Of a stretch of DNA of 64,000 nt, positions 26,339 through 35,096 are shown one piece after another. Positions within the stretch are counted from its first letter, which is position 1. Every line of letters starts with the position of its first letter. The translations under genes and the position numbers were made by a program. The stretch comes from Candidatus Thorarchaeota archaeon. Its GTDB lineage: Archaea > Asgardarchaeota > Thorarchaeia > Thorarchaeales > Thorarchaeaceae. Under the pieces are notes generated by a model. That model was given only the letters and a program-made list of their open reading frames with translations, was not told the DNA's origin and did not search any database. The stretch covers positions 74 through 64,073 of the forward strand of contig JAEORO010000056.1 in NCBI GenBank assembly GCA_016840855.1. The letters are read 5' to 3'.

Positions 26339-26689
26339 GTGCCAATTGATAGGACATTTAGGGAAACATGGGCGATTGTCAAAGAACATCTTGGACATCC
26401 TGTTTGGCAATCCCCACAAAAGAAAACGGCTGATATTCATGGCCGTCTTGTAGGAGTAGACTTCTCGCTGTGTTATGGTTGTGAAAAGTGCATCCATGCA
26501 TGTCCAACTAATGTCTTTGTACTAATGCAGGATGATTCTGGACGCACTATTGTTGATCCTGTGAAAGACGACGAGTGCATCTTATGTCTTGTGTGCGAGA
26601 TTGTATGTCCTGTTGAGGCTATTAGTATTGAGCGAGCAGGTGGTTCAGACGACACCCTCGACTCCTTACTAGAGGGAAAGAGAGGATAG
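26339..26689 (+). CDS. 2x[4Fe-4S] ferredoxin-domain protein
   Basis: CYGCEKCIHACP and CILCLVCEIVCP motifs. Apparent GTG start. The stop is 3 nt before the acyl-CoA dehydrogenase start. Confidence 0.7.
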   Translation: MPIDRTFRETWAIVKEHLGHPVWQSPQKKTADIHGRLVGVDFSLCYGCEKCIHACPTNVFVLMQDDSGRTIVDPVKDDECILCLVCEIVCPVEAISIERAGGSDDTLDSLLEGKRG

Positions 26690-33320: not shown

Positions 33321-35096
33321 CTAGTCTTCTATTACAGCTCGTATCCGCATAAGCCCTGCGCCAATGCTCTTCTGCTGGGTTATTCTGAACTTCTTCAGAA
33401 CACCGGTTTTTTCAACATGAGGCCCTCCACAAAGTTCCATGCTAAAATCACCAACAGAGTAAACAGAAACGGTTTCACCGTAGTTTTCCTTGAAGAAAGC
33501 AAGAGCGCCTCTTTTAATTGCTTCATCATATGGCAAGAATTGTTGTGTGACGTCTAGGTCTTGGTCGATGATATCATTAACCAGTTTTTCAACCTCCTCA
33601 ATCTCTTCTGGAGTCAGTTTCCTTGAGAATGTGAAATCAAATCTTAATCGGTCTTCAGTTATATTGCTCCCATTTTGGGTCACTTCATCACCAAGAACTT
33701 TTCTCAGAGCGGCCTGTAGTAAGTGAGTTGCTGTATGCAGCCTTACGATTCGCTCAGTATGTTCAGCTAGACCACCTTTGAACTTACCCTGCGTCGCAGT
33801 TCTTGATATCTCTCGATGTTCCTCAAACTGCTTTGTGAACTCTTCCATATTGATTTTGATTCCTTTCTCTTCCGCAAGCTCTCTCGTCATCTCTAATGGC
33901 AATCCAAAACTTGTGAAGAGGAGGAAAGCATCTTTACCAGTGATGCTTCCTGTTTCCTCGTAGATTCTCTCAAATTTCCGAAGGGCTTTTTTTAGAGTCT
34001 TTCTAAATTTGACCTCTTCCGCAGTAAGATTGGTCAAGACGAATTCCTTGTTTCGCTCCACCTCACCATAGATGTTCTTGAACATATCAATGACAATCTC
34101 TGCAAGACTATTCATGAAACCTTGACCTATATCGAGTCTGTCTGCACTATGAATCGCCTTTCTGAGTAGACGTCTTACAATATATCCCTGTTCAACGTTT
34201 GAAGGTCCGATTTTTCTGTCATCTGCCATAATCATGACTGCTGACCTAACATGATCGACGATTATCCGAATGAGCCGATTGTCTTCCTCAGTGAACACCT
34301 CTCTGCTTGATAGTTCCTTGATATGTTCAATTAGAGGAATGAAAAACTCAGTATCGAACACTGTCGGGACTCTCTGAATCATAGCAAGAGTTCTCTCGAC
34401 ACCCATTCCAGTATCAATACTATTCATTTTCAGAGGTTCGTAAGATCCATCATCGAGTTTTCGCTAGCTCATGAAAACGTCATTCCATACTTCAACAAAG
34501 TGACCACAGTTACATCCCGGTCGACAATCTGGACCACACTTAGCTATCTCGTCCACTTCAATAAACATCTCTGTGCAAGGACCACACGGACCAGCGTTCC
34601 CTGCAATCCACCAGTTTTCCTCCTTACTTAGGAAGTAAATTCTCTCGTCTGGTATTCCGACGCTGCGCCAAGCGCTTGCGGCTTCGTCATCTCTTGGAGA
34701 GTCCCGATCGCCTGCGAAGACAGTAACTGACAACTTGTTTGGGTTGAAACCAAGCCATTTCTTTGATGTCAGAAACTCATAGCTCCATGTGATTGCTTCT
34801 TTCTTCCAATAGTCTCCAAAACTCCAATTACCTAGCATCTCAAAGAATGTGAGATGTGTGGTGTCGCCAACTTCATCGATGTCAGTTGTACGAACACATT
34901 TCTGAACATTAGTCAAGCGTTTTCCTTCAGGATGCGGTTGACCCAATAGATATGGGACTAACGGATGCATTCCTGCTGATGTGAACAGAACAGTAGGATC
35001 ATCCTCTGGAAATAGTGATGCAGATGCAATCACTGAGTGCCCTCTCTCTTTGAAAAATTTCAGGTAAATATCTCTCAGTTCTTGAGCTTGCATCAT
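33321..35096 (-). pseudogene. alaS: bacterial-type alanyl-tRNA synthetase interrupted by one in-frame TAG (34464..34466); alternatively a split or read-through gene
   Basis: ORFs 34464..35096 and 33321..34427 are in the same frame. The joined sequence reads ...EVWNDVFMS[TAG]RKLDDGSYEPLKMNSIDTGMGVERT..., continuous with conserved AlaRS sequence. The editing-domain motifs HTATHLL and CGGPHV are present. Confidence 0.6.

Follow-up and report, generated by a model that had tools for sequence, protein, structure and literature searches.

The stretch of DNA analysed here (the window, 64,000 nucleotides) belongs to a metagenome-assembled genome of an Asgard archaeon (Thorarchaeota; 3.36 Mb, 259 contigs, 92% complete, 6.3% contamination), and carries at positions 33321-35096 of its minus strand an alaS gene for a short, bacterial-type alanyl-tRNA synthetase (AlaRS), recognised from its translation, its matches to PF01411 and PF07973, its homologues and an alignment to 1RIQ. 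The reading frame of this gene is interrupted once, by an in-frame TAG at codon 211 (34464-34466, minus strand), which translation and alignments place where a conserved tyrosine should stand. Read through this position, the gene comprises 591 codons, the internal TAG counted among them; it has no other internal stop and no frameshifts, and it closes at a natural terminator that is also TAG (33321-33323, minus strand) and that marks the same end point in all homologues. A preliminary description of this DNA had singled out the lone TAG at 34464-34466 between two AlaRS open reading frames in the same frame; translation of the minus strand bears this out and reproduces exactly the peptide that was quoted there for the joined frames.

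On either side of the stop lies a long open frame. The N-terminal one (34467-35096, minus strand; 210 codons) contains class II motifs 1 and 2, as judged by translation, Pfam and the 1RIQ alignment, and has neither motif 3 nor the DTGMG alanine-binding segment, while the C-terminal one (33324-34427, minus strand; translation and Pfam) runs for 368 codons from its first ATG at codon 224. Since matches to the Pfam family tRNA-synt_2c (PF01411) continue across the stop, covering profile positions 1-204 before it (E = 1.2e-66) and 210-453 after it (E = 9e-59), the two open reading frames are a single gene cut by one codon. The encoded protein has catalytic, tRNA-recognition and editing domains; the last of these is matched by tRNA_SAD (PF07973, E = 9.7e-16) and retains the metal site (HxxxH...CxxxH) as HTATHLL and CGGPHV. 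The C-terminal C-Ala domain is absent, the protein stopping at residue 591 directly past the editing domain, with no more Pfam matches.

The translation aligns with AlaRS of Aquifex aeolicus (1RIQ) over residues 2-433, and also with 3HXU, and on the former structure the stop maps to the part of the catalytic core that links class II motif 2 to the segment holding DTGMG and motif 3. The column of codon 211 is tyrosine in 31/31 aligned Thorarchaeota homologues, and tyrosine or phenylalanine among more distant ones, so that the TAG does occupy a conserved aromatic position, as the preliminary description had said. That description had also placed the stop one substitution away from TAT or TAC, and the two nearest relatives do have TAT at codon 211, with the surrounding bases unchanged (AGC TAT CGA AAA CTC). 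On this comparison of sequences, a single T-to-G substitution in the coding strand, turning TAT into TAG and Tyr211 into a stop, explains the lesion; the changed base is position 34464 of the plus strand, where C is read and A is expected. The change creates a perfect palindrome, GCTAGC, and the loop that contains it is bounded by the arms of a 6-bp inverted repeat, GTTTTC...GAAAAC (window 34455-34482); this feature may be due to chance, or it may have a bearing on a templated mutation or on a sequencing error that depends on the sequence.

The proteins closest to this AlaRS are labelled Candidatus Thorarchaeota, the best match being that of SMTZ1-45 (92% amino acid and 87% nucleotide identity), and the gene order around alaS is shared with that genome. 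Between alaS and a gene for a Zc3h12a-type NYN RNase, the window has a 437-aa gene of the beta-lactamase family (PF00144; 35332-36645, plus strand). Since this gene is missing from the equivalent place in SMTZ1-45 and on contig C70 of the same assembly (described below), it appears to be a lineage-specific insertion.

How much depends on the interrupted gene follows from the AlaRS complement of the genome. PF01411 matches in the assembly are confined to alaS, an AlaX and a 118-aa fragment on the 2.8-kb contig C70; the second, archaeal-type alaS that had been suggested as something to look for was not found in the genome. On these matches, alaS is the sole AlaRS of the organism and should be essential, so that a true knockout that had become fixed should be lethal. 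The short gene is also the form that recurs among relatives, whose Thorarchaeota AlaRS proteins are of the same length. When the proteins of 87 species of the class were scanned, 79 species matched it (~72 of them at near full length), representing 16 of the 17 genera; the present genome was the only one with an internal alaS stop, and no second alaS copy was detected, all double matches being non-overlapping pieces of one gene. A scan of 19 genomes of the genus with AlaRS profiles identified no archaeal-type AlaRS, but only the short form and free-standing AlaX. Other Asgard lineages have an archaeal-type AlaRS gene with an open frame of ~860-1,000 aa, and the nearest non-Asgard relatives of the short enzyme (50-57% identity) are from Woesearchaeota, Spirochaetes, Clostridia, candidate-phyla-radiation bacteria and Methanomethylophilaceae. 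Throughout this Thorarchaeota family, in 16 genera, the AlaRS that was seen is bacterial-type, ~590 aa long and devoid of C-Ala; our literature search returned no paper on a short bacterial-type AlaRS across this family.

Selection on the gene was assessed separately for the two sides of the stop. Measured against SMTZ1-45, the nearest relative, dN/dS is 0.056 before the stop and 0.063 after it, as compared with 0.048 between two intact relatives. Of the 305 alignment columns that are invariant in 31 relatives, the window gene deviates in no more than two, the stop itself and D160E, a conservative replacement, and one changed invariant column lies within the range of intact sequences. Low dN/dS on both sides, the intact invariant residues and the lack of frameshifts together rule out a long-standing pseudogene. 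With strong purifying selection acting on both halves, the gene could be a pseudogene, one of the options raised at the outset, only by virtue of a very recent lesion, and older decay is not in keeping with the data.

A freshly inactivated copy would be tolerable if a second alaS in the same cell supplied the enzyme, and the assembly does hold a candidate for such a gene. Contig C70 (2,808 bp, outside the window) carries an NYN RNase gene, a transporter gene and, at its end, the first 118 codons of an alaS, whose product is 92% identical to that of the window gene (83% at the nucleotide level) and which stands in the same gene order. It is this similarity and the matching order that speak for the TAG copy being a duplicate. 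However, nucleotide identity between C70 and the window locus amounts to 71-84%, and to any sampled congener to no more than 79%; together with the 6.3% contamination of the assembly, these values fit a congeneric population better than a paralogue. The gene order on C70 is the standard arrangement of the genus, the double matches in other species of the class proved to be pieces of one gene, and the window copy shows no relaxed selection. We consider inactivation of a duplicate very unlikely, and from its sequence C70 probably stems from a related, congeneric population and was co-binned with this genome. Pairs of identical tRNA genes occur on different contigs of the assembly as well (Cys-GCA on C60 and C225, Leu-TAA on C36 and C128), and these may have the same cause.

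The arrangement of the two open frames could alternatively be taken to mean that the enzyme is made in two parts, as it is in Nanoarchaeum equitans, with an N-terminal piece of 210 aa and a C-terminal piece of 368 aa, the latter begun anew at Met224, assembling into an active enzyme. An in-frame ATG is indeed available for this, and it is the 13th codon after the TAG (34425-34427), just as had been pointed out. Yet the break separates motif 2 from the DTGMG-motif 3 segment within the catalytic core, so that neither piece has a complete core, and a restart at Met224 would drop 13 residues; in this stretch, 5 of the 12 residues that follow the stop (Lys213, Gly217, Tyr219, Pro221 and Leu222) are invariant or nearly so. 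The ATG is preceded by no Shine-Dalgarno-like sequence, the scan of 87 species contained no split relative, and the two pieces share one frame exactly and run collinear with intact relatives, which is what a point change predicts. These observations speak against the split enzyme that the preliminary description had listed among its options, and we regard it as extremely unlikely. An archaeal BHB mini-intron was rejected as well, given that the TAG replaces the tyrosine codon one for one, with no extra bases in the alignment.

A further option that had been raised was that the TAG is read by design, as pyrrolysine or another residue, or as part of a genome-wide sense code for TAG. There is a phylogenetic context for such a reading: Pyl machinery is present in the Asgard class Sifarchaeia (PMC9723677), and some Thorarchaeia carry orphan tRNA-Pyl-like genes, although Thorarchaeia are stated to lack the Pyl cluster (Sun et al. 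2021, PMC9723677). In the present assembly, which is 92% complete, a search with the PylS model (TIGR02367) gave no match at E <= 0.001, and the best score for PylB (TIGR03910) was 23 bits against a cut-off of 348. No tRNA with a CUA anticodon was present among the ARAGORN hits or the 39 Rfam tRNA hits, from a tRNA set that is incomplete in this assembly. The one candidate 'tRNA-Pyl' that ARAGORN proposed at a relaxed threshold is a false positive, lying inside a 329-aa open reading frame and forming a poor cloverleaf. A tRNA-Sec (UCA) gene was seen on contig C72 (35,074-35,164, outside the window), in line with the selenocysteine decoding reported in Thorarchaeia (PMC9723677).

The use of TAG in the rest of the genome was examined within the assembly itself and by comparison with ~1.57 Mb of contigs from six related Thorarchaeota genomes. 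TAG terminates 690 of the 2,088 long open reading frames of the genome, and pairs of long open reading frames joined by a single stop are about as frequent for TAG (37) as for TGA (42) and TAA (39). A first, unfiltered tblastn screen had returned 281 apparent in-frame stops, which proved to be shadow frames running opposite real genes, that of ribosomal protein uL14 for one, or to lie upstream of true starts. When support for an internal stop was defined as high flanking identity together with agreement among several references, the TAG in alaS was the only supported internal stop in the 936 congener open reading frames with good matches, which cover ~646 kb of the genome. The reverse comparison, with 2,192 alignments onto the contigs of the six relatives (1.57 Mb), likewise gave no excess of in-frame TAG. 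Genome-wide reassignment of TAG is thereby excluded: the codon is a common terminator, occurs in frame once among the 936 conserved open reading frames and is not in excess in congeners. Programmed recoding at this one site fares little better, as TAG is the normal terminator of a third of the genes and of alaS itself, the position needs a tyrosine and no relative has TAG there. With neither PylS, nor PylB, nor a CUA tRNA in the assembly, recoding is already largely refuted, and we assign it next to no probability.

What is left for a stop that is real and fixed is low-level natural read-through, in which a near-cognate tRNA-Tyr or tRNA-Gln would sustain the cell; insertion of tyrosine would restore the wild-type enzyme, and the yield of AlaRS could be enough for a slow-growing sediment archaeon. 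Because this is the sole AlaRS and both of its halves are constrained, a real stop would require that the part downstream of it is still produced. Termination in archaea relies on aRF1, which is similar to eRF1, and UAG-C is known in eukaryotes as a leaky context in which near-cognate read-through inserts tyrosine or glutamine. The base that follows the TAG in alaS is C, the rarest context at the natural TAG terminators of this genome (14%, against a genomic C content of 21%), and since it is the least used terminator context, some leakiness would be favoured if the stop is real. Against this, the TAG is common to no relative, no other conserved gene has an in-frame TAG, no suppressor tRNA was found in the assembly and the RNA past the stop has no unusual structure (z = 0.16); the dN/dS constraint, moreover, is equally explained by a very new stop or by an error. 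We therefore judge it unlikely that a fixed stop is tolerated through read-through. The more specific proposal, that an Asgard archaeon makes its only AlaRS by natural amber read-through, with near-cognate tRNA-Tyr restoring Tyr211 at a weak UAG-C, is more doubtful still; if true, it would mean that an essential gene is sustained by leaky termination in an eRF1-like system.

The explanation that we favour is an isolated TAT-to-TAG change that is probably an error of sequencing or assembly, or else a nonsense allele that is rare or arose very recently. Under this explanation alaS would be an intact, essential, single-copy gene whose assembled sequence is one base off every relative, with no mechanism that decodes or bypasses the stop; the base would have entered the metagenome-assembled consensus as an error or as such an allele, and in the living population codon 211 would be expected to encode tyrosine, yielding a normal 591-aa AlaRS. 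We thus infer that the base at 34464 is wrong or is unrepresentative of the population. An error or a rare allele is likelier than a fixed knockout because the sole AlaRS cannot be dispensable.

The comparison of conserved genes also gives an impression of how often the assembly is disrupted at single bases. Among the 936 open reading frames there were one or two frameshift candidates, of which one is clear: it falls at a run of nine A in a conserved gene of 898 aa on contig C32 (~26,489-26,525, minus strand, outside the window), which is uninterrupted in a congener, and reflects either an assembly error at the homopolymer or a site prone to slippage. Sporadic single-base disruptions of an error-prone type therefore do occur in this assembly, and because they are otherwise rare in the 936 open reading frames its error rate is not high. 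An independent assembly of the same population was sought in two ways. Exact-protein look-ups of the N-terminal fragment of alaS and of the neighbouring PhoU-like gene returned nothing, and a metagenome scan with the 21-mer that spans the site, in which the changed base was left as N, gave no hits beyond SMTZ1-45, with TAT, and one unrelated chance match; no such assembly was found by either route.

The finding itself is of little weight, and serves as a warning: annotation of this record would present alaS as a pseudogene or break it into two fragments, when the organism almost certainly has a working AlaRS despite the assembled TAG. Its weight would grow only if the TAG were real and fixed, in which case an essential archaeal gene would be shown to depend on stop-codon read-through. 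The more interesting by-product is that the only AlaRS seen across the Thorarchaeota family is a short bacterial-type enzyme without C-Ala.

Set beside known systems, the encoded enzyme shares with the bacterial-type AlaRS of Aquifex aeolicus (1RIQ/1YFR) and E. coli (3HXU) the class II core, a domain for tRNA recognition and an editing domain that includes the metal site. The difference from the E. coli enzyme lies in its length (591 aa, as compared with ~875), in having no C-Ala and in being found in an archaeon. Shorter still is the mini-AlaRS of Tupanvirus, which is also without the editing domain (PMC10036535).

With regard to the stop, the window shares with the split AlaRS of Nanoarchaeum equitans the distribution of the AlaRS sequence over two open frames. 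In Nanoarchaeum equitans, however, the pieces are separate genes at different loci with their own starts, whereas those in the window are contiguous, in frame and one codon apart, and the cut runs through the catalytic core. Pyl decoding by pylTSBCD likewise involves archaeal genes with a UAG in frame, including that of Asgard Sifarchaeia (PMC9723677), but the window genome is without pylS, pylB and tRNA(CUA), its TAG is not conserved in relatives, and the site is a conserved tyrosine of a housekeeping enzyme as opposed to the active site of a methylamine methyltransferase. The closest likeness is to the ordinary premature stops of metagenome-assembled genomes, which have in common with the present case a single substitution in a constrained gene that is not shared with relatives and is accompanied by no decoding machinery. 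The genome-wide and cross-genome screens lend no support to a systematic phenomenon; what sets the window case apart from ordinary premature stops is that it strikes the sole, indispensable AlaRS.
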